Shown one piece after another: positions 20,211-47,068 of a stretch of 64,000 nt of DNA. The stretch's first letter is position 1. Each line of letters opens with the position of its first letter. Where the stretch lies: the NCBI GenBank assembly GCA_965219345.1, contig OZ244732.1:1152001-1216000 (forward strand). The letters are read 5' to 3'. A program made the position numbers and the translations under genes. The stretch is from Nitrosopumilus sp. Its GTDB lineage: Archaea; Thermoproteota; Nitrososphaeria; Nitrososphaerales; Nitrosopumilaceae. Below the pieces are notes generated by a model, which saw nothing but the letters and a program-made list of their open reading frames with translations, was not told where the DNA came from and did no database searches.

Positions 20211-20699
20211 TTGCAGGCAGTAACTGATGATCGATTAGCACTTTTTGGTGAAATGGAGTCAAAATATGAACAAAAAGATACAGAGTATTTTGTTTCTCTT
20301 TTAGAACATCCTGATTATGTGGTTAGAACAAGAGCTACCTGTATTTTGGTTGATTTTGGTGGAGAGGATAAAGTTCCCCATATTGCTAAAGTTTTAAAAA
20401 ATGATGAAAATGAATTGGTACGACATGAGGCTGCGTTCTCATTAGGCCAGATGTGTTACTCTAGTTCAATTCCTCCTCTAAATGATGCAACACTTAATGA
20501 TCCAAGTATGTTTGTACGTCATGAAGCTGCAATTGCTTTAGGTATTGTTGGCTCTAAAGATGCAAAAGAAACTTTGGAAAAGGCATTAAACGATCCTGAT
20601 AAATCAGTCGTTGAATCCGCAATTGTTGCCTTGTCTAATATTCAATTTATGGAAACGTTAAGTAAGAATGAAAAGTTTGCGAAGTTGACAGGTGGATGA
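20211..20699 (+). CDS. HEAT-repeat protein (PBS lyase / deoxyhypusine hydroxylase-like)
   Basis: Two VRHEAA..LG repeats. Confidence 0.8.
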   Translation: MQAVTDDRLALFGEMESKYEQKDTEYFVSLLEHPDYVVRTRATCILVDFGGEDKVPHIAKVLKNDENELVRHEAAFSLGQMCYSSSIPPLNDATLNDPSMFVRHEAAIALGIVGSKDAKETLEKALNDPDKSVVESAIVALSNIQFMETLSKNEKFAKLTGG

Positions 20700-21687
20700 G
20701 ATGAATTTTGCATATTATGTTATAGCTATAGTTGGCGTTCTTGCTGCAATAATTTTAGGATTGATTGCTGCAGCACCTGATGATATTATAGAACCAAGAG
20801 TAGCTTCTGTTGAAGATATTTCTGTCAATTCTTACATTCTGCCAAAAACTGCAACTGTGGGTGATATTTTACTTATTGAAATTGAGTTTAGAGATGATGG
20901 AAAGAAAATTGTTGATCATGTAAATTATGATATAATTGCTACACAAGATGGAGATACAATTCTTTCAGAACCTGGTTCTCATAGACACCCTGGAATGCAT
21001 CCAATTCATGAAACTAGTGTATTAAGCGAGTCTCCACTTGAAATTCAAGTTACTTTACAAGGTTTAGGTCATGGTGATGATATCTCAGAACCAAAGGGAG
21101 ATGTAACTACTTTGACTGTTGATCCTGAAGTTGGACCAATTGCATGTACTTTGGAACATGCACCAGTTTGTGGTGTTGATGGTGAAACATATGGTAATTT
21201 GTGTATGTTAGATGCTAGTCATATTAAATTAGATTATGAAGGTGAATGTGTGATTGCACAACCAGAACCAGTTGAAGAGAAACCAACTACTTTAGCAGAT
21301 AATGCAGAAGTAACAATTGGAACAGTAGAACAATCTGCGTTTGGTCAGGACTGTGTGGCAGATGGTTGTTACACGCCAAATTCTGCAACTATTGATGTTG
21401 GTGGTGTTGTAACAATGACAAACACAGATACTACTGGAGTACATACATTCACATCCGGAACAGTTGATGGATTTACTCCTTCTCCAAATGGTACATTTGA
21501 TTCAGATATCCTATTATCGGGAGATTCATTTGAATGGATTCCAGATACTGCAGGTGAAGTTCCTTACTATTGTGTGCTTCATACTTGGATGCAAGGCACA
21601 ATCATAGTACAAGAAGCAGAAGAAGAAATCATGGAAGAAGTTGAAGCAACACCAGAACCAGTTGCAGAAACATCGAACCATCAATAG
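20692..21687 (+). CDS. membrane-anchored Kazal-domain / plastocyanin-like blue copper protein, C-terminally truncated
   Basis: N-terminal TM helix, Kazal CTLEHAPVCGVDGETYGNLC, cupredoxin HTFTSG...YYCVLHTWM. It stops abruptly after a frameshift in the linker. Confidence 0.8.
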   Translation: MDEMNFAYYVIAIVGVLAAIILGLIAAAPDDIIEPRVASVEDISVNSYILPKTATVGDILLIEIEFRDDGKKIVDHVNYDIIATQDGDTILSEPGSHRHPGMHPIHETSVLSESPLEIQVTLQGLGHGDDISEPKGDVTTLTVDPEVGPIACTLEHAPVCGVDGETYGNLCMLDASHIKLDYEGECVIAQPEPVEEKPTTLADNAEVTIGTVEQSAFGQDCVADGCYTPNSATIDVGGVVTMTNTDTTGVHTFTSGTVDGFTPSPNGTFDSDILLSGDSFEWIPDTAGEVPYYCVLHTWMQGTIIVQEAEEEIMEEVEATPEPVAETSNHQ

Positions 21688-21772
21688 CACTAACAATATT
21701 GCATGCTTTTGACAATTTCCATCAATGTTAATGATGTTGCAGAAACATCGAATCATCAGTAGCACTAACAAT
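21661..21772 (+). repeat. two 37-bp direct repeats (35/37 identical) separated by a 38-bp insert
   Basis: GTTGCAGAAACATCGAACCATCAATAGCACTAACAAT at 21661-21697 and GTTGCAGAAACATCGAATCATCAGTAGCACTAACAAT at 21736-21772. Confidence 0.95.
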
Positions 21773-21787
21773 CTCAATTCCTAAGGC

Positions 21788-22306
21788 ACTATCAAAGGTG
21801 TAAGAACCATTATGAGTGAAGGAGGAGATAACGCGTATTATGTTAATGTCTCATCAGAATCTAAAATTCAAGCTATTGCATGTACGATGGCTTGTATGAT
21901 GTTTAATGAGAAAAAAAATAATTTAATTCCTTATTATGTTCAACCAAAAGAATATTTTGATTATAATGGGAAGCAAATGTCAACAGGATTAGAAAAAATA
22001 ATCTACGTGCCACAGTATGAAATTAAAACACCTGATGAAAAACTAATGCAATCTTTGCAAATCATAAAAGAAAATGATAATCGAATTACAAAAAGTGATT
22101 TAGCAAAAGCTGTAGATGAAAAAAATATTATTGAAATTGGTGCTAAACAAGAGAATTATGAACAAGCAAGATTCACGAGTTTAGATAAAAATATAATTCA
22201 ACCTTTAAAAGATAATTGGAAATTTATCCAAGAAAACAAAATTGGAAGAACAAGATGGGTTGAGATCACTCCTGAAGGAGGAAATGTATTAGAAATTTTA
22301 GACTAG
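21788..22306 (+). pseudogene. 5'-truncated DUF6293 / HFX_2341-like (CARF-like plus wHTH) regulator
   Basis: YVNVSSESKIQAIACTMACMMF...PYYVQP and a C-terminal wHTH. The frame is open only from about 21788, so the N-terminal half is missing. Confidence 0.65.
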
Positions 22307-22318
22307 AATTAATATTCT

Positions 22319-24745
22319 TTAATTCATTCTAGAAATTTTAGAAATTTCTTCTTGTTTTGAAATCTGAAATATGTTATCTACATAGGCTTCAAGCTCTTTT
22401 TCATGAGAAACAAGCACAATTTGCTGTGATTTTAATTCATCTAGTATTTCCCTGATTTTGCCTAATTGGTTTTTAGAAAATCCATCAGTTGGTTCATCTA
22501 AAATCAGCAAGTTTGATTTTAATGATTTTGTCTCCTTTCTCATTAGAGAATTCAAAGTTAATCTATATGCTAATGCAATGCTGGTTTTTTCCCCACCTGA
22601 AAGGTATCCAACCTCTTGTTCATATCCATCTTGAGTTACAATTGGTGTAAAACCCTCGTCAATTCTGGATTCTTTGGTGGGATCTTCAACAAGAATTGAA
22701 TACCATCTATGATACGTTTCATTAAAACTCTGCAAAATTGATAATAATACCTGTTTTTCAATCTGAGATATGGTTGGAATAAAAAATTCAGTTAGCCAGT
22801 CAAAATATTCTAAAAATTTACCATGCCTCATCTTCCATTTTTGAGATTCGGCAATCTTTTCTTTATTCATTGAAATCTTTTCCTGTTCATTTTCTAGATT
22901 TTGTTTTGATAATGCACTCACAATAGAGGCTTGGTTGATCTTTTGATTATTTTCTTTAAATTTTTGTTCAGTTGATTTTATTTCATCATCAATGTCTACA
23001 AATCGGTTTACTTGTTTTTCAATACTCTGAATCTCTTTCTTATTTTTTACAATGTTCGCCTTAAATGATTTTAAATCAGTTTGATACTTTGAAACTAATT
23101 TTAGAATCTTTTCTTGATTCTTTTTTGTATCTGTTATTGTTACCGAAGAATTCTCGTATTCTACTAAAGCGTCTTTAAGAGCAGAAAGATACTCTACTGG
23201 TTCACTAGATTCATACTTGAATTTCTCTGTTAGAATTTTATTTTGCATCTCTAATTCCTTAATTTTAGCCTCAATTTGAGCAGATTTTATCGATTTTTCT
23301 TCAAATTCTTCAATTTCAGGAATCATTTGTTGATTGTCAAATATTTCAGATTTTAGTTTTTCAATTTCTTTAGAAAATTTTGTATGGTGTTTTTCTGTAT
23401 CAAAAAACGTATTTACAATCTTTTTTAATTCCATGCTTAATTTATTTAGTTCTGTTTTTCGTTCACTCTCTACACCTTTCAAATGTTCTGCTGTAATCTT
23501 TTGCTCACATACAGGACATTTTGCTCCGAGTTTTGTAAATCTGCCAATATCATTTTGTAAATTTTCTATATTTGTTTCATATTTTGTTTTTTGTATTTTT
23601 AGACTATCGATCTCTTTTTCACTTTCTTCAAATATTTTTAGAGTATTCTCCAAGGTTTTTTGTTTATCAATTGTTTCTTTTTGTATTTCTTTTTTATTTT
23701 TATCTGATACTTTTTTACTTAATTTTGAAATTGATGATGATAATTCTGAGACAATAGTTTTTGATTTTACTAATTCATCATTGATTTTTTGAAATTTTTC
23801 AGTCTCTTTTTTGATTTGTGTAACTGTTTTTGTTGTCGGTCTTTTGATTTTATTTAATTTATTTAATTTTTCTTCAAATTCTTCAATTTCTTCTTTGGCA
23901 TCATAGATATCTGTATTAGTTGATTCAATAGATGATTCATAATCTACAATTTTTTCTTCTAATTTATTTTTTATACTTTCAAGTTTTACTTTTTCTATGT
24001 TATGTTTTTGTAGTTGTTTTAATTTTTTGTCTACTAGAATATTTTCTGACTCTAAATCTTTTCTTTCTTTGTCTAATTGAGAAATCTCTGCATTTATCTC
24101 ATCAACTAAATTCTTTGATGCTTTATTTTCTTCTTCTAATTGTCCAGTATCTCTAAATCTTTCTTCTAACCGTGCCATCTGTAGTTCTATTGATGCCGCA
24201 ATATTTTCGGAATTTGTAGCTGCAACAGCATAATCTTCAATTCCAAATGCTCTTCTTATTGTCTCTAGTCGTGTTTTAGAATCTCCAAGAACTTTTTTCA
24301 TCTCTTCCTGAGGTGTAAATACTGCATAACGGAAGATTCTGCTTTCAGATCGCGCGTCTCCAGGCTCATTGAATTTGAGAATCTGAAGTACTCGTTGCTT
24401 TAGCTCTGATGGTGAGAGTAGCTCTTTTTCATCATTTGTTTTGATATACGAATTTTTTGGATCCTGATTTACTCCTGTTGATTTTCTTTTGAGTGTACGC
24501 TTTATCTCGTATTTTTGATCATCCACTGTAAACTCTAAAATCGTATAACCACTGTCTGCTTTTTTTGCAAGAAGCGATTCTGCTTTTTGTGAACCTAAAC
24601 CAAATAATGCAAACTCTATTGCCATCAATACTGTAGACTTGCCAGAACCGATGTCTCCTTCAAACAAAGTAATTCCACGTGGAAACTCTATTTCTTCATG
24701 AGAGTAGCTTCGAATATTCCCTAACACAAGTGAATTAAGAATCAT
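22319..24745 (-). CDS. rad50: Rad50 (SMC-family ATPase)
   Basis: Walker A GDIGSGKS, coiled coils, Zn-hook CPVC, LSGGE, LILDEPT. Confidence 0.92.
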   Translation of the reverse strand: MILNSLVLGNIRSYSHEEIEFPRGITLFEGDIGSGKSTVLMAIEFALFGLGSQKAESLLAKKADSGYTILEFTVDDQKYEIKRTLKRKSTGVNQDPKNSYIKTNDEKELLSPSELKQRVLQILKFNEPGDARSESRIFRYAVFTPQEEMKKVLGDSKTRLETIRRAFGIEDYAVAATNSENIAASIELQMARLEERFRDTGQLEEENKASKNLVDEINAEISQLDKERKDLESENILVDKKLKQLQKHNIEKVKLESIKNKLEEKIVDYESSIESTNTDIYDAKEEIEEFEEKLNKLNKIKRPTTKTVTQIKKETEKFQKINDELVKSKTIVSELSSSISKLSKKVSDKNKKEIQKETIDKQKTLENTLKIFEESEKEIDSLKIQKTKYETNIENLQNDIGRFTKLGAKCPVCEQKITAEHLKGVESERKTELNKLSMELKKIVNTFFDTEKHHTKFSKEIEKLKSEIFDNQQMIPEIEEFEEKSIKSAQIEAKIKELEMQNKILTEKFKYESSEPVEYLSALKDALVEYENSSVTITDTKKNQEKILKLVSKYQTDLKSFKANIVKNKKEIQSIEKQVNRFVDIDDEIKSTEQKFKENNQKINQASIVSALSKQNLENEQEKISMNKEKIAESQKWKMRHGKFLEYFDWLTEFFIPTISQIEKQVLLSILQSFNETYHRWYSILVEDPTKESRIDEGFTPIVTQDGYEQEVGYLSGGEKTSIALAYRLTLNSLMRKETKSLKSNLLILDEPTDGFSKNQLGKIREILDELKSQQIVLVSHEKELEAYVDNIFQISKQEEISKISRMN

Positions 24746-36617: not shown

Positions 36618-37574
36618 ATGCTAGTACAACAGACTCCAGAACTTAAAGATGAGATTCTGAGACTCAAGAAAGAAAAAGATGTGATCATTTTGGCACACAA
36701 TTACCAGATTCCTGACGTACAGGATGTAGCTGATTTCACAGGAGATTCTCTGGGTCTTTCAAGACAAGCAGCAAAAGTTGATCAAAAAACAATTCTGTTT
36801 TGTGGTGTAAAATTTATGGCAGAAACTACTGCAATCATCAGCCCTGAAAAAAAAGTGTTGCTTCCGGATTTAGAGGCTGGGTGTTCATTATCTGACTCTA
36901 TTACTGTTGATGAACTACAAAATTGGAAGAAACAACATCTAGGTGCTATTGTAGTTGGTTATGTTAATACAACTGCAGAAATCAAAGCAGAACTTGATTA
37001 TTGTTGCACATCTTCAAACGCTATAAATGTTGTAAAAGCAATTCCTGAAGATAGGGAAATTTTATTTTTACCTGACATGTTTCTTGGCGCTTATGTTGCA
37101 AAAATGACTGGAAGAAAAAATATGCGCATATGGGCAGGTGAGTGTCATGTCCATGCAGGAATCACTCCTGAAGATATTGCCAAAAAATTAGATTCAATGA
37201 AAGATGCTGAATTTGTTATTCATCCAGAGTGTGGTTGTACTACTCCATTCATGTATGATATTGCAGATGGACGTTTTGATGATAAAAAAGTTTCAATACT
37301 TTCTACTGATGGAATGCTAAAACATGTCAATAAATCAAAATCAAAGAACTTTGTTGTTGCTACTGAAACTGGAATACTGTATAGAATGAGAAAAGATAAT
37401 CCTGGAAAAACATTTGTTCCTGCATCGGATAAAGCTGAATGTCAATACATGAAGATGATTACACTTGAAAAAGTGTATGATGCATTGGTAAATGAAAGAT
37501 ATCTTGTCACCGTTCCTAAAGAAATTGCCGATAAGGCTAGCCTGGCAATTAATAGAATGCTTGAAATCAAATAG
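36618..37574 (+). CDS. nadA: quinolinate synthase
   Basis: AHNYQ, GDSL, FCGVKFMAE, AGCSL, YVNT, CHVH, HPEC, CQYMK. Confidence 0.96.
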   Translation: MLVQQTPELKDEILRLKKEKDVIILAHNYQIPDVQDVADFTGDSLGLSRQAAKVDQKTILFCGVKFMAETTAIISPEKKVLLPDLEAGCSLSDSITVDELQNWKKQHLGAIVVGYVNTTAEIKAELDYCCTSSNAINVVKAIPEDREILFLPDMFLGAYVAKMTGRKNMRIWAGECHVHAGITPEDIAKKLDSMKDAEFVIHPECGCTTPFMYDIADGRFDDKKVSILSTDGMLKHVNKSKSKNFVVATETGILYRMRKDNPGKTFVPASDKAECQYMKMITLEKVYDALVNERYLVTVPKEIADKASLAINRMLEIK

Positions 37575-39624: not shown

Positions 39625-39771
39625 CTGTACTGTTTTTTTGAATTTCAATTTATGAATCTTTGGATGATTTAGGCCTGAATTTTCAAAGATTTTACTAATT
39701 TTCCATATAATTGTTAATTTCTTTTATTGTCTAACCTATGTTTAAATAATGTAAACGGACTTTTTTACACA

Positions 39772-40887
39772 ATGGTTGGAATCGATCAAGTTCTTGAAAA
39801 ATTAAGTACGGTCATTGATCCTGATTTGAAAAAAGATATTGTATCTATGGGCATGATAAAAGATATAGAACTTAATGAAGGAAGTCTGAAATTTACTTTA
39901 GAATTAACAACACCTGCCTGCCCTTTCAATGTCGAAATTGAAGAAGATGTTAGAAAAGCGATTGATGAAATTTCTGACTTGAAAAATTTTGATATGAAAG
40001 TAACTGCAAAAGTCATGGAAGGACGTTCACTTGATGCAGATACTGGAATGGCAACTGTCAAAAACATCATTGGTGTTGCTAGTGGAAAAGGAGGTGTAGG
40101 AAAATCAACCGTTTCTTTGAATTTAGCTTTGGCATTATCTCAAACAGGAGCTAAAGTTGGATTGTTAGATGCTGATATCTATGGTCCTAGTATTCCACTG
40201 ATGCTTGGAATGAAAGATACATTCATGCAAGTAGAAGAAAACAAACTTCAACCTGCTGAATCGAACGGGCTAAAGGTAGTCTCATTTGGTTTCTTTGCAG
40301 AGCAATCACACCAAGCAGCAATCTATCGCGGTCCAATTATCTCTGGAATATTAAAACAGTTTCTAGTTGATACTGATTGGGCTGATCTGGATTATCTTAT
40401 TGTAGATCTTCCACCAGGTACGGGTGATATTCCATTAACACTTGCACAAACAATTCCAATCACGGGTATTCTAGTCGTTACAACTCCACAAGATGTTGCA
40501 AGTAATGTAGCAGTCAAAGCAGTTGGAATGTTTGAAAAACTAAATGTTCCACTTATTGGGGTTGTTGAAAACATGAGTCACTTTATTTGTCCAAACTGTG
40601 ATGAGAAGCACTACATCTTTGGTGAAGGAGGTGCAAAGAGAATTAGCGAACAATTTAACATGCCTTTCTTAGGTGAAATTCCATTAAACTCTGGAATAAT
40701 GTCTGGTTCGGATTCAGGTAAACCAATCATGATTACAAATCCTGATTCTCCAAGTGCAATTGCTTTTCGAACAAGCGCAAAAAATATTGCAGCACAATGT
40801 AGTATACTTGCAGCAAAACTACAAGAAGAGATAGAATCTGAAGCATCTGAAAAAGAACAAGCACCAGAGGCAAGTACTTCTAACTAG
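39772..40887 (+). CDS. mrp: Mrp/Nbp35 (ApbC) Fe-S cluster carrier ATPase
   Basis: DUF59 N-terminus (LTTPACP), SGKGGVGKST, DLPPGTGD, ENMS..CPNC. Confidence 0.92.
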   Translation: MVGIDQVLEKLSTVIDPDLKKDIVSMGMIKDIELNEGSLKFTLELTTPACPFNVEIEEDVRKAIDEISDLKNFDMKVTAKVMEGRSLDADTGMATVKNIIGVASGKGGVGKSTVSLNLALALSQTGAKVGLLDADIYGPSIPLMLGMKDTFMQVEENKLQPAESNGLKVVSFGFFAEQSHQAAIYRGPIISGILKQFLVDTDWADLDYLIVDLPPGTGDIPLTLAQTIPITGILVVTTPQDVASNVAVKAVGMFEKLNVPLIGVVENMSHFICPNCDEKHYIFGEGGAKRISEQFNMPFLGEIPLNSGIMSGSDSGKPIMITNPDSPSAIAFRTSAKNIAAQCSILAAKLQEEIESEASEKEQAPEASTSN

Positions 40888-41958: not shown

Positions 41959-43998
41959 ATGGAGATTCCAGAAATTCTGCCATTTGTTGCGGGCATTGCA
42001 TCATTTTTAGTCGCTGGCGGCTTGGTTGCATGGATTATGAAACAACCTGCAGGAACAAAAGAGATGATGGATATTTCAAATGCTGTCAAAGAAGGTGCAG
42101 CAGCATTTCTAAAACGAGAAATGATGATTATAGTTCCAGTTGCTATAGCATTATCATTAATTATTGGGGCATTTCTTCAACCATCAAATGGAATCGCATT
42201 TGCCGTTGGTGCAGCACTTTCTGCAGTTGCAGGAATTATTTCATTAAAAATTACAGTAAAAGCAGCAGTTAGAGCTGCAAATTTGAGCAGTAGTGGATTA
42301 GGAAAGACATTTGCTATGGCCTTTAGAGGTGGAGCTACAGTAGGGCTTGCAGTTCCGGCAATGGCATTATTGGCAATCACTGGTCTTTACATGATTTATC
42401 CAGATCCAATCACAATTGCCGGTGTTGGAATTGGTGCTAGTCTAATCGCATTATTCATAAGAATTGGTGGTGGCATCTTCACAAAAGCTGCAGATATGGG
42501 CGCAGACTTGGTAGGAAAAGTTGAAGTAAATATACCTGAAGATGATCCTAGGAATCCTGCCACTATTGCAGATAACGTGGGTGATAACGTTGGAGATGCA
42601 GCAGGAATGGGATCTGATGTTTACGAATCTTATATTGTTACAGTACTTGCAGCATTGTTAATTGCAGCATTAATTGGTGCACCAAACTTTTTCCTCTACC
42701 CAATTTTGATTGGTTCTTCTGGAATGATTGCATCAATTATTGGTGTTGTAATTGTTGGCTCTAAGAATATAACCGATGTAATGAAGCCTCTTAGTCGTTC
42801 ATTTTATGTTTCAGCAGCTATTGCAATTGGATTAAACTATGTATTTATTACACAATTCATCGGTGATTCTCCAACATCATATGCTTTGTTTGGAAGTACA
42901 GTAATTGGCGTGATTTTAGTTCCTGTAATACAAAAGATCACTGACAACTATACAAGTTACAAAAAAGGACCTGTAAAGGAAATTGCAGACTCTGCAAAGT
43001 GGGGATATGCATCATTAACTTTAATGGGAATTATCAAAGGTATGCAGTCAACAGGACCATTTATGATTTCATTGGTAATTGCAATCATTGTATCCTATAG
43101 CATTGCATCTGCTGCAGCACCTGAAGGTGCAGACCCCGTACTTTATGGAATCTTTGGAACAGCTCTGACTGCAATGGCAATGTTAAGTCTTGCCGGAATT
43201 GTCCTAAGTATTGATGCATTTGGCCCAATTGCAGATAATGCCGGTGGAATTGTTGAGATGACCGGAATGGGCGAAGAAAATCGTAAAGTTACAGATGAAA
43301 TTGATGCAGTTGGAAATACAACTAAAGCAGTTACCAAAGGATTTGCTATTGCTAGTGCTGCATTAGCTGCCCTGGCAATGATTCAGGCATTTCAGTTCGA
43401 AGCATCTCATATCTTTGAAGGTGTATTGGAATTAGATTACAGTTTAACAAATCCTGCAATAATTGTTGGATTGTTAATTGGTGGTTTGATCCCATTTATC
43501 ATTACAGGCCAACTCATTAATGGTGTTTCAAGGGCTGCAGGAAAAATGGTGGATGAAGTTAGACGGCAATTCAAAGCCGATTCTGGAATTCTTGAAGGAA
43601 CATCAAAACCAGATTATGCTAAATGTGTAGATATTGCTACTGTTGCTTCAATTAAAGAGCTTTGGAAACCGGCAATTGTCGCAATTCTTGCTCCAATAAT
43701 TTTAGGAATATTGTTGGGTCCGACTGCTGTAGCTGGATTATTAATGGGCGCAGTTATTACCGGAATCTTGTTGGCATATCACTTGGCAAATACTGGCGGT
43801 GCATGGGATAACGCAAAGAAACTAGTAGAGATGAAAGGTGAAAAGGGTTCTGAAATACATAAAGTTGCAGTTGTAGGTGACATTATTGGCGATCCTTACA
43901 AAGACACTGCCGGACCTGCACTTAACACTGTCATTAAATTACTAAACACAATTGCCATTGTCTTTGTATCTGCCTTTGTTGCAATACTTGCTATCTAA
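41959..43998 (+). CDS. hppA: membrane-bound H+-translocating pyrophosphatase, K+-independent type
   Basis: GGIFTKAADMGADLVGKVE, EDDPRN, DNVGDNVGD, GNTTKA (Lys at the K+-dependence position), GDPYKDT. Confidence 0.95.
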   Translation: MEIPEILPFVAGIASFLVAGGLVAWIMKQPAGTKEMMDISNAVKEGAAAFLKREMMIIVPVAIALSLIIGAFLQPSNGIAFAVGAALSAVAGIISLKITVKAAVRAANLSSSGLGKTFAMAFRGGATVGLAVPAMALLAITGLYMIYPDPITIAGVGIGASLIALFIRIGGGIFTKAADMGADLVGKVEVNIPEDDPRNPATIADNVGDNVGDAAGMGSDVYESYIVTVLAALLIAALIGAPNFFLYPILIGSSGMIASIIGVVIVGSKNITDVMKPLSRSFYVSAAIAIGLNYVFITQFIGDSPTSYALFGSTVIGVILVPVIQKITDNYTSYKKGPVKEIADSAKWGYASLTLMGIIKGMQSTGPFMISLVIAIIVSYSIASAAAPEGADPVLYGIFGTALTAMAMLSLAGIVLSIDAFGPIADNAGGIVEMTGMGEENRKVTDEIDAVGNTTKAVTKGFAIASAALAALAMIQAFQFEASHIFEGVLELDYSLTNPAIIVGLLIGGLIPFIITGQLINGVSRAAGKMVDEVRRQFKADSGILEGTSKPDYAKCVDIATVASIKELWKPAIVAILAPIILGILLGPTAVAGLLMGAVITGILLAYHLANTGGAWDNAKKLVEMKGEKGSEIHKVAVVGDIIGDPYKDTAGPALNTVIKLLNTIAIVFVSAFVAILAI

Positions 43999-46174: not shown

Positions 46175-47068
46175 GTGAGATTGGGATTTAAAGAAATAAT
46201 GGAGATATCCAAACCCAGGATAGTTGTTCTTCTAGTTATTACTGCAATAACTTCAATGTATGCAGCAAGTAAACTGGTTGATGGTGTCCCGGAACTTGAT
46301 AATTGGTTATATCTACACATAATTATTGCAGGTGCATTGGCATCTGCAGGATCCAGTGCTCTAAATCACTATTATGACAAAGACATTGATCCTAAAATGA
46401 CGAGAACTAGTACAAGACCTATTCCATCTGGACGTATGGCAGCATCTCATGTATTCATTTATGGATTTGTTGTAAGCTGCGTATCTGTAATCTATGGTTA
46501 CTTTACTCTAAACCCTGTATCTGCTTTCTTTATTGCTGTTGGCATATTCTCTTATGTGATTATTTATACAGTTTGGCTAAAACGTCTAAACTCTTCCAAC
46601 ATTGTAATTGGAGGAATTGCTGGCAGTGCTGCAGCTTGGGCTGGATGGTCTGCAGCTACTGGCAGTATGGATTTGTTAGGATTCTTAGTTGGATTCTTGG
46701 TCTTTGTTTGGACTCCTTCTCACTTTTGGTGTCTTGCAATGAAGATTAAAGATGAGTATGCACAAGCTGAGATACCTATGTTACCTGTTGTAATTGGTAT
46801 GCAAAAAACATCAAAGTACATTTTAGGAAACACGATAATTTTAATTCCTTATTCTTTGACACTTTCATTTATTCCCAATGGTTTGGGAATTGTTTACACT
46901 GTAATTGCGCTGGTCTCTGGTGGACTGATGCTTGCATATCACTACAAGCTAACAAAGAATCCTACATCTGAATTTGCTTGGAAAGCATACAAAGTTACTG
47001 CTCCATATCTTACAATAATTTTTGTAGCAGTAGCATTGGATGCTGCATTTCATTTCCCTCTGTTCTGA
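46175..47068 (+). CDS. cyoE: protoheme IX farnesyltransferase (heme o synthase)
   Basis: KPRIV, N.YYDKDID..M.RT..RPIPSG, YT.WLKR, WTPSHF. Confidence 0.93.
   Translation: MRLGFKEIMEISKPRIVVLLVITAITSMYAASKLVDGVPELDNWLYLHIIIAGALASAGSSALNHYYDKDIDPKMTRTSTRPIPSGRMAASHVFIYGFVVSCVSVIYGYFTLNPVSAFFIAVGIFSYVIIYTVWLKRLNSSNIVIGGIAGSAAAWAGWSAATGSMDLLGFLVGFLVFVWTPSHFWCLAMKIKDEYAQAEIPMLPVVIGMQKTSKYILGNTIILIPYSLTLSFIPNGLGIVYTVIALVSGGLMLAYHYKLTKNPTSEFAWKAYKVTAPYLTIIFVAVALDAAFHFPLF

Follow-up and report, generated by a model that had tools for sequence, protein, structure and literature searches.

A stretch of 64,000 nucleotides (nt) of the Nitrosopumilus sp. genome (contig OZ244732.1, positions 1,152,001 to 1,216,000, called the window throughout) contains a unit in which a short fragment antisense to the gene hppA is placed between two copies of a local sequence. 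The unit resembles a CRISPR array with a single spacer. We consider it, with a probability of roughly 85%, to be the product of off-target (ectopic) spacer integration by the Cas4/1-Cas2 proteins of the resident type I-G CRISPR-Cas system, persisting as a non-functional scar. The evidence for this reading comes from the anatomy of the unit, the resident system with the lengths of its repeats and spacers, a genome-wide class of 31 units, empty sites of sister units, inserts derived from the own chromosome, a site motif and a control genome.

An earlier note on this DNA, made from the letters of the sequence, described two 37-bp repeats around a 38-bp insert, and the geometry of a one-spacer CRISPR unit which it recognised is borne out (Table 1). 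The two direct copies are identical at 35 of 37 positions, with a start-to-start distance of 75 nt. At up to three mismatches, the 37-mer occurs twice in the window, both times within the unit, while two matches were obtained in none of 100 shuffles. Taken as 38 nt (21698-21735) and reverse-complemented, the insert can be aligned to the own hppA at 43011-43048 without a gap and with 31 of 38 identities, which confirms the antisense relationship that had been claimed. The match extends by one base (G at 21736) into the second copy, giving 32 of 39 identities, and the unit can therefore be read equally well as 36/39/36 or as 37/38/37. Two near-identical copies and one spacer of 38-39 nt represent the minimum possible for a CRISPR array.

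The unit is not an assembly artefact, being present in contigs from the runs of two studies, which cross both of its junctions. An 8.5-kb contig of run X9 covers positions 21396-22500 without gaps, and contigs of 218-223 nt from the second study (runs X10 and X11; n=2) cover positions 21565-21787, in each case with the whole unit included. Run X6 does not differ from the window, of which it may be the source sample, and therefore gives no independent support. The runs labelled as marine contain small shares of the stretch only, from which no habitat can be deduced. In runs X9, X10 and X11, position 21678 of the first copy carries the base of the second copy, and the insert contains T at 21713 and C at 21718, where the window has C and T. 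The divergence of the unit between the studies amounts to four letters in about 220.

The earlier note found no cas genes. This holds true for the window, but not for the genome, which encodes a complete type I-G system at a distance of 468 kb. A Pfam search for Cas1, of the kind that had been proposed, returns matches in 59 of 151 genomes of the genus, this genome included. The region C1:1639572-1641549 encodes a Cas4g/Cas1g fusion (NF049935, 754 bits with a cut-off of 560) together with Cas2. Beyond these genes lies an array of 164 repeats of 36 nt, 163 of them identical, and it is the start of this array that is 468 kb from the unit. On the far side, the array is followed by a GSU0053-family protein, two large proteins to which Pfam gives no hit, and Cas3 with its helicase and HD domains. 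The true repeat has ATTGAAGC at its end and folds into a 7-bp hairpin (-8.3 kcal/mol, z -3.7), which is maintained in relatives by compensatory changes. The 163 spacers are 35-53 nt long, with 150 of them in the range of 35-40 nt, and the period of the array has a mean of 74.0 nt (standard deviation 2.4). These lengths account for the geometry of 36 + 39 + 36 nt and the period of 75 nt: the duplication of 36 or 37 nt stands against a true repeat of 36 nt, and the insert of 38-39 nt falls inside the range of the array spacers.

Other traces of CRISPR components were also seen. An isolated Cas1 fragment (C1:1123019-1123234), 29 kb before the window, is an 83-amino-acid open frame that covers model positions 210-281, and may be left over from a casposon or from a second CRISPR locus. 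In the genome G017, a lone match of 44 nt (98%) to positions 1433-1476 of the array query lies at G017:C1:1535361-1535404, distant from the Cas1 gene of that genome; by its coordinates it represents one true repeat and a few flanking bases. A simple CRISPR finder additionally flagged C1:1127433-1130719 and C1:1130778-1132741, which are tandem repeats with periods of 60 nt and of 162/324 nt. Their units abut without unique spacers, and they are therefore not CRISPR arrays.

The unit with the hppA insert belongs to a genome-wide class. A scan of the whole genome for direct repeats in two copies yielded 61 isolated cases, the lengths of which peak at 36-38 nt and the periods at 71-76 nt, with 36 nt (12 cases), 37 nt (9) and 38 nt (4) as the commonest duplication lengths. 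Under strict limits (duplication of 30-39 nt, period of 64-76 nt, identity of at least 94%), there are 31 units in the 1.87 Mb of contig C1, or 16.6 per Mb. Each unit consists of its own local sequence of about 36 nt, doubled around its own insert of 32-40 nt. The periods lie at 71-76 nt in 28 of the 31 (mean 73.1, standard deviation 1.3), the duplications are perfect in 20, and 23 of the periods are not multiples of three. One unit is present twice, at 37490 and 243305, within a repeated element. No unit with more than one spacer was found in the scan; three other loci with three copies, tried as multi-spacer neo-arrays, are coding or simple tandem repeats.

For six units, the source of the insert could be located elsewhere in the chromosome, five times at 100% over 37-39 nt and once at 97% over 36 nt, and the own genome contains no source that we could find for the remaining inserts. 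The guanine plus cytosine (GC) content is 43.1% in the unit inserts, 42.1% in the true spacers and 36% in the genome. At several units, the in silico removal of the insert and one copy merges the flanking reading frames: at 1519410, frames of 439 and 257 amino acids become one of 666, and excision at 1339320 and 1503080 gives frames of 303 and 304 amino acids. The genes struck include an IS1595-family transposase, an ABC-transporter permease, a UDP-glucose/GDP-mannose dehydrogenase and an FMN reductase. Two pairs of paralogous targets (404166 and 1448839; 1824847 and 1483340) have been struck independently and with different inserts.

Several units cluster in stretches of C1 with 45-57% GC (about 1495000-1520000, 425000-432500 and 910000-915000), which are probably acquired islands. 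A second, smaller set (C1 1251065, 1265409, 1448839, 1483340, 1573079 and 1573477) has duplications of 30-32 nt, inserts of 34-36 nt and periods of 64-67 nt. The own genome has no array with 30-nt repeats, and this set may represent imprecise events or the relics of a second system that has been lost.

Comparison with the closest relative examined, G007, demonstrates that the units arose by insertion and that their targets were duplicated in the process. Four of the 31 (43479, 497370, 1248140 and 1824847) correspond to empty sites in G007, where the two flanks are joined by a single copy of the target, while 14 of the 31 lie in DNA without a G007 counterpart within 400 nt. The earlier suggestion of a captured piece of hppA, inserted with duplication of its target, is supported in this respect. 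G007 gives no match to Cas1, and the strict limits return three candidates in the 1.625 of its 1.885 Mb that were scanned (86%), all with a period of 72 nt. Two of these are short tandem repeats, the third a 72-nt repeat at 37/38 identity, and none is convincing. Candidates are thus scarce where the adaptation module is missing, at 1.8 per Mb in G007 as the sole control against 16.6 per Mb here, in a comparison that spans one control genome and one partly scanned cas-positive genome, and is not a survey. That second genome, G156, has the identical true repeat, and the part of it that was sampled (0.8 of 2.39 Mb) contains five candidates. One more G156 unit, which falls outside the strict limits, has its empty site in the window (Table 1).

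The targets of the units also have a motif in common. With the orientation of each unit assigned by expectation-maximisation before motif scoring, the flanks and ends of the units contain 7.0 bits of information, against 4.1 +/- 0.3 in 40 random sets (maximum 4.7). Its main positions, from left to right, are T at -7 (22 of 31 units), C two bases ahead of the duplication, then G, T, A/T and G as the first four bases (positions 1-4), and A at position 6 (24 of 31). The hppA unit matches all the main positions, and its leave-itself-out score of 5.55 bits is reached by 1.0% of 50,000 random sites.

The insert is unique within its own genome, and its alignments point to the hppA of another species. 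The own gene (open reading frame, ORF, 41959-43998) is recognised by Pfam as H_PPase with 761.7 bits. Over 39 nt, the insert is identical to the hppA of other species at 36 positions in three genomes (G083, G090 and G161) and at 35 positions in 20 more, while the hppA of G007 gives 34. The hppA matches across the genus have E-values of about 1e-9 to 1e-10 per genome, and are not due to chance. The T at 21713 and the C at 21718 of runs X9, X10 and X11 agree with the antisense strand of hppA, which makes these hppA-like states ancestral and the C and T of the window later changes. With the ancestral bases restored, the original insert matches the hppA of G090 and G161 at 38 of 39 positions and the own hppA at 34 of 39. 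Since the two copies differ at 2 of 37 positions, and the unit at four of about 220 between studies, the five differences from the own gene are hard to explain by later divergence. The earlier idea of a donor nearer to the hppA of other lineages holds up well in these comparisons, and the donor was probably DNA from another species of the genus, with an earlier allele of the own hppA, since replaced through recombination, as the alternative to be kept in mind.

A search for the sources of genuine spacers produced one related observation. No credible protospacer was found for the 163 own spacers and 929 distinct spacers of relatives in the own genome, 1.6 Mb of G007 and 0.8 Mb of G156. The best result is spacer 60 of the true type I-G array of G014, which matches a conserved gene for an Mrp/NUBPL-type ATPase at 35 of 40 positions in G007 and at 32 of 40 in the window (40191-40230, minus strand, within ORF 39727-40887), 2.8 kb from the hppA protospacer. 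As this is a genuine spacer from the chromosomal gene of a congener, the uptake of the chromosomal DNA of congeners may not be rare; the haloarchaeal mating described further below is a parallel case. A G009 spacer also gave a gapped match, to C1:1515224-1515252, which was set aside as unreliable. A megablast of the whole array gave no match among 50,697 phage records, three 28-nt pieces of leader-proximal spacers had no exact match in viral contigs, and a genus-wide search with the 12-kb array, in which two candidates were scored per genome, returned mostly the arrays of relatives.

We infer that the resident Cas4/1-Cas2 complex is the agent, and the following course of events can be proposed. 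The complex would capture a fragment of about 39 bp, flanked by 5'-TTG in the donor, from incoming DNA that carries the hppA of another species. Instead of the leader-repeat junction of the true array, it would attack the 3' end of a Kazal/cupredoxin-like gene, at a site with the weak motif. Two staggered strand transfers would take place 36 bp apart, the same spacing as across the true 36-bp repeat, and repair of the gaps would double these 36 bp, leaving one copy on each side of the insert. In our best explanation, the unit has since drifted as a neutral scar, the copies now differing at two positions and the insert carrying two derived changes, with more polymorphism between strains.

The duplicated sequence itself is ordinary, unique local DNA and not a CRISPR repeat. 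The earlier note had advised a search for further copies of the 37-mer with other spacers, and none exists elsewhere in the own 1.91-Mb genome or, at up to three mismatches, in any of 150 other genomes of the genus. The folding of this pseudo-repeat does not differ significantly from that of shuffles (z -1.0 to +0.6), and it lacks the ATTGAAGC 3' end and the hairpin of the resident true repeat. An Rfam scan of the unit gave three matches, all far under the gathering scores, and no family. Having no leader, hairpin or 3' handle, the unit is most probably never made into a guide RNA, and the guide or antisense role that had been considered for it is unsupported. A working orphan mini-CRISPR would yield a processed guide, or an antisense RNA directed at hppA mRNA or at the incoming DNA of related species. 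It would agree with the repeat-spacer-repeat geometry, with a plus-strand transcript being antisense to hppA, with the presence of an effector module in the genome, and with the retention of the unit in strains of two studies. However, it would have to operate with a repeat confined to one locus, with no overall resemblance to the true repeat and no significant fold, in a genome where every sister unit has a different repeat, and its insert has gathered changes away from every hppA allele. We regard it as the least probable of all the explanations considered here.

A repair or template-switch scar, which the earlier note held to be at least as likely, would involve no CRISPR protein: replication or repair would switch to hppA as template, copy 38-39 nt, and return to a point 36-37 nt behind. 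Template switching is able to produce the repeat-insert-repeat geometry. Additionally, the right edge of the second copy is 13 nt from a rearrangement breakpoint relative to G007, the mre11-rad50 genes adjoin the region of the unit, and the target edge and the donor flank have 7 nt in common. However, it does not predict 31 units of fixed geometry, with duplications of about 36 nt and inserts of 32-40 nt that equal the resident repeat and spacer lengths, nor their near-absence from the relative without Cas1, and it does not fit the empty sites. The template would further need to be a foreign hppA allele, and the two real junctions have microhomology of just 1-2 nt. A scar of this kind is therefore very unlikely.

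Another account would replace the resident proteins with an unknown integrase or mobile element whose lengths coincide with theirs, or would have the unit formed in another lineage and imported with the segment 20800-21785. The units with 30-32-nt duplications, which a 36-nt repeat does not explain, the Cas1 fragment at C1:1123019-1123234, and the lack of the unit-bearing segment in G007 would suit this account. However, the inserts differ from one another, lack terminal repeats and in some cases copy ordinary genes of the chromosome exactly, and no transposon is known to make such insertions; import of the segment would concern the place of the event, but not its mechanism. The specific case of a transposable element was examined and rejected, as conserved ends or genes in several copies are absent, the insert has no second copy in the genome, and each unit has a different one. 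Only a slender chance is left for an unknown integrase or an imported unit.

Several observations weigh against off-target integration, and should be set beside the evidence in its favour. The empty site of the hppA unit itself was not found, its target being present in 0 of the 150 other genomes of the genus. A 28-nt string from the right flank of the unit had no match in metagenome contigs, and no contig of the four runs skips the 75 nt, although contigs show presence only and are thus uninformative about an empty allele. The period of 75 nt is a multiple of three, as in the coding-repeat false positives of G007. The overall likeness of the pseudo-repeat to the true repeat is at chance level (9-10 of 36 positions by eye), and the units as a set have a modest similarity to the ends of the true repeat (mean 6.4 versus 5.5, P about 0.002). 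The site motif resembles the reverse complement of the true-repeat ends; read in this manner, it would place the TTG flank at the end which the textbook model terms distal to the protospacer-adjacent motif (PAM). Finally, the left edge of the target (21655-21661) and the donor 5' flank in alleles such as that of G090 have the seven letters CCAGTTG in common, which could indicate a homology-guided event. The identity could also be due to chance, microhomology or an intrinsic preference of the integrase; it lies 37 nt from the junction, and the own hppA is 21 kb away.

The flank of the donor has a limited part in this balance. It is TTG in the own hppA and in five of seven tabulated alleles of other species, with TGG and TAG in the other two. 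A TTC-type PAM (GAA on the other strand) is given for the characterised type I-G Cas4/1 in PMC10504553, and the TTG flank may be weakly compatible with it. Among seven identified insert sources, T is found at -2 in six and G at -1 in five. The point is weak because no protospacer was found for any true spacer from which the PAM of the resident system could be derived, because TTG stands on that side in three of the seven sources, which is itself a point against off-target integration, and because the orientation of the motif would put the flank on the unexpected side.

The position of the unit among its neighbours is summarised in Table 1. The unit overlaps the end of an ORF for a protein with a Kazal domain, which may also be cupredoxin-like, from a copper-site-like motif; Pfam gives Kazal alone. 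The TAG stop (21685-21687) and the last codons of this ORF fall within the first copy, so the protein is unaltered by the insertion, and the earlier reading of the first part of the repeat as linker coding sequence is correct. Forty bases downstream of the unit begins a truncated DUF6293 / HFX_2341-like gene. A full-length gene is present in G007, which agrees with the description of the neighbour as a remnant. G007 is 84-92% identical over the flanking 40 kb, but has no counterpart of window positions 20800-21785, where about 1 kb is replaced (G007 segment L029 18945-19911), and its homology resumes at 21786. Most of the Kazal/cupredoxin-like ORF falls within the replaced segment, and with the replacement the DUF6293 gene lost its 5' part.

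Table 1. Coordinates of the unit and of related features in the window.
Feature	Position	Strand	Remarks
Target-site duplication, copy 1 ("repeat 1")	21661-21697	+	37 nt as aligned; 36 nt (21662-21697) should the leading G match by chance
Inserted fragment ("spacer")	21698-21736	+	38-39 nt; on the + strand, antisense to hppA
Target-site duplication, copy 2 ("repeat 2")	21736-21772	+	Differs from copy 1 at 21753 and 21759
ORF of 331 amino acids, Kazal domain, C-terminal copper-site-like motif	20692-21687	+	Pfam: Kazal only
5'-truncated DUF6293 / HFX_2341-like gene	21812-22306	+	Pfam covers just the end of the N-terminal domain
Stretch of own hppA homologous to the insert	43010-43048	+	32/39; 34/39 to the ancestral insert; not the donor allele
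Empty site of an independent unit of G156 (C1:1400043), not part of the hppA unit	47033-47067		Empty in G007 too

Off-target integration as a kind of event is already known; what stands out here is how many cases there are, the type I-G system in an archaeon, the genes that are interrupted and an insert probably taken from a foreign housekeeping gene. In a search that left subscription journals and supplements outside, no report was found of many fixed natural off-target integrations, nor of type I-G systems in Nitrosopumilus. A wild archaeal genome with about thirty fixed events stands against over-expression in E. coli and circumstantial natural evidence. Genome sequences alone would allow one to gauge what a CRISPR adaptation module costs its owner as an insertional mutagen, and which targets the module intrinsically prefers, and the class of units offers a view of how new arrays might start. 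The hppA insert would be a physical trace of the chromosomal DNA of another species entering the lineage, a form of gene exchange that is otherwise hard to observe. For genomes with cas1-cas2, the isolated one-spacer arrays reported by CRISPR finders should be checked for an off-target origin before they are called orphan arrays.

It is also conceivable, although unlikely, that ectopic integration is a used activity, in which a motif-directed CRISPR integrase writes spacer-sized fragments across the flexible genome. If true, it would knock out the genes of mobile elements (the IS1595 transposase is among the genes struck) and supply raw repeat-spacer-repeat units for the birth of new arrays. 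The inserts would then represent a datable fossil record of all the DNA entering the cell, the chromosomal DNA of congeners included.

The units can be compared with several known systems. Like the insertions of transposons and casposons, they have a target duplication that flanks the insert, and some of them have empty sites in relatives. Unlike them, the insert is a 38-39-nt piece of a housekeeping gene, differs from unit to unit, and is devoid of terminal inverted repeats and element genes. The duplication made by a casposon is typically 14-15 bp, against 36 bp in the unit. In neo-CRISPR units made in E. coli, the duplication reportedly has the length of the repeat.

Such neo-CRISPR units result from non-canonical spacer integration in E. 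coli over-producing Cas1-Cas2 (Nivala, Shipman and Church 2018, Nat Microbiol 3:310), and a citing preprint describes the evidence for natural off-target cases in two other species as circumstantial. As that work is described by other papers, the likeness to our units lies in a spacer-sized fragment outside the array and in a repeat-spacer-repeat structure made from local DNA. The units described here differ in being natural, fixed and archaeal, in having a 36-bp duplication attributed to a type I-G Cas4/Cas1 fusion system, in their number of 31 in 1.87 Mb with several interrupting genes, in their own site motif, and in a single spacer each.

Canonical type I-G adaptation (PMC10504553) has in common with the unit the enzyme family (NF049935) and an insert in the spacer range of the array, and the TTG flank may be compatible with its PAM; the unit differs from it in lacking a leader-repeat junction and in that the duplicated 36 bp are not a CRISPR repeat. 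In haloarchaeal inter-species mating, spacers are acquired from the chromosomal genes of the related species (Turgeman-Grott et al. 2019, as reported in 10.1101/2025.06.18.660351). The insert of the hppA unit would likewise come from a conserved chromosomal gene of a congener, and not from a virus, but in a different archaeal phylum and with the fragment placed outside the array.

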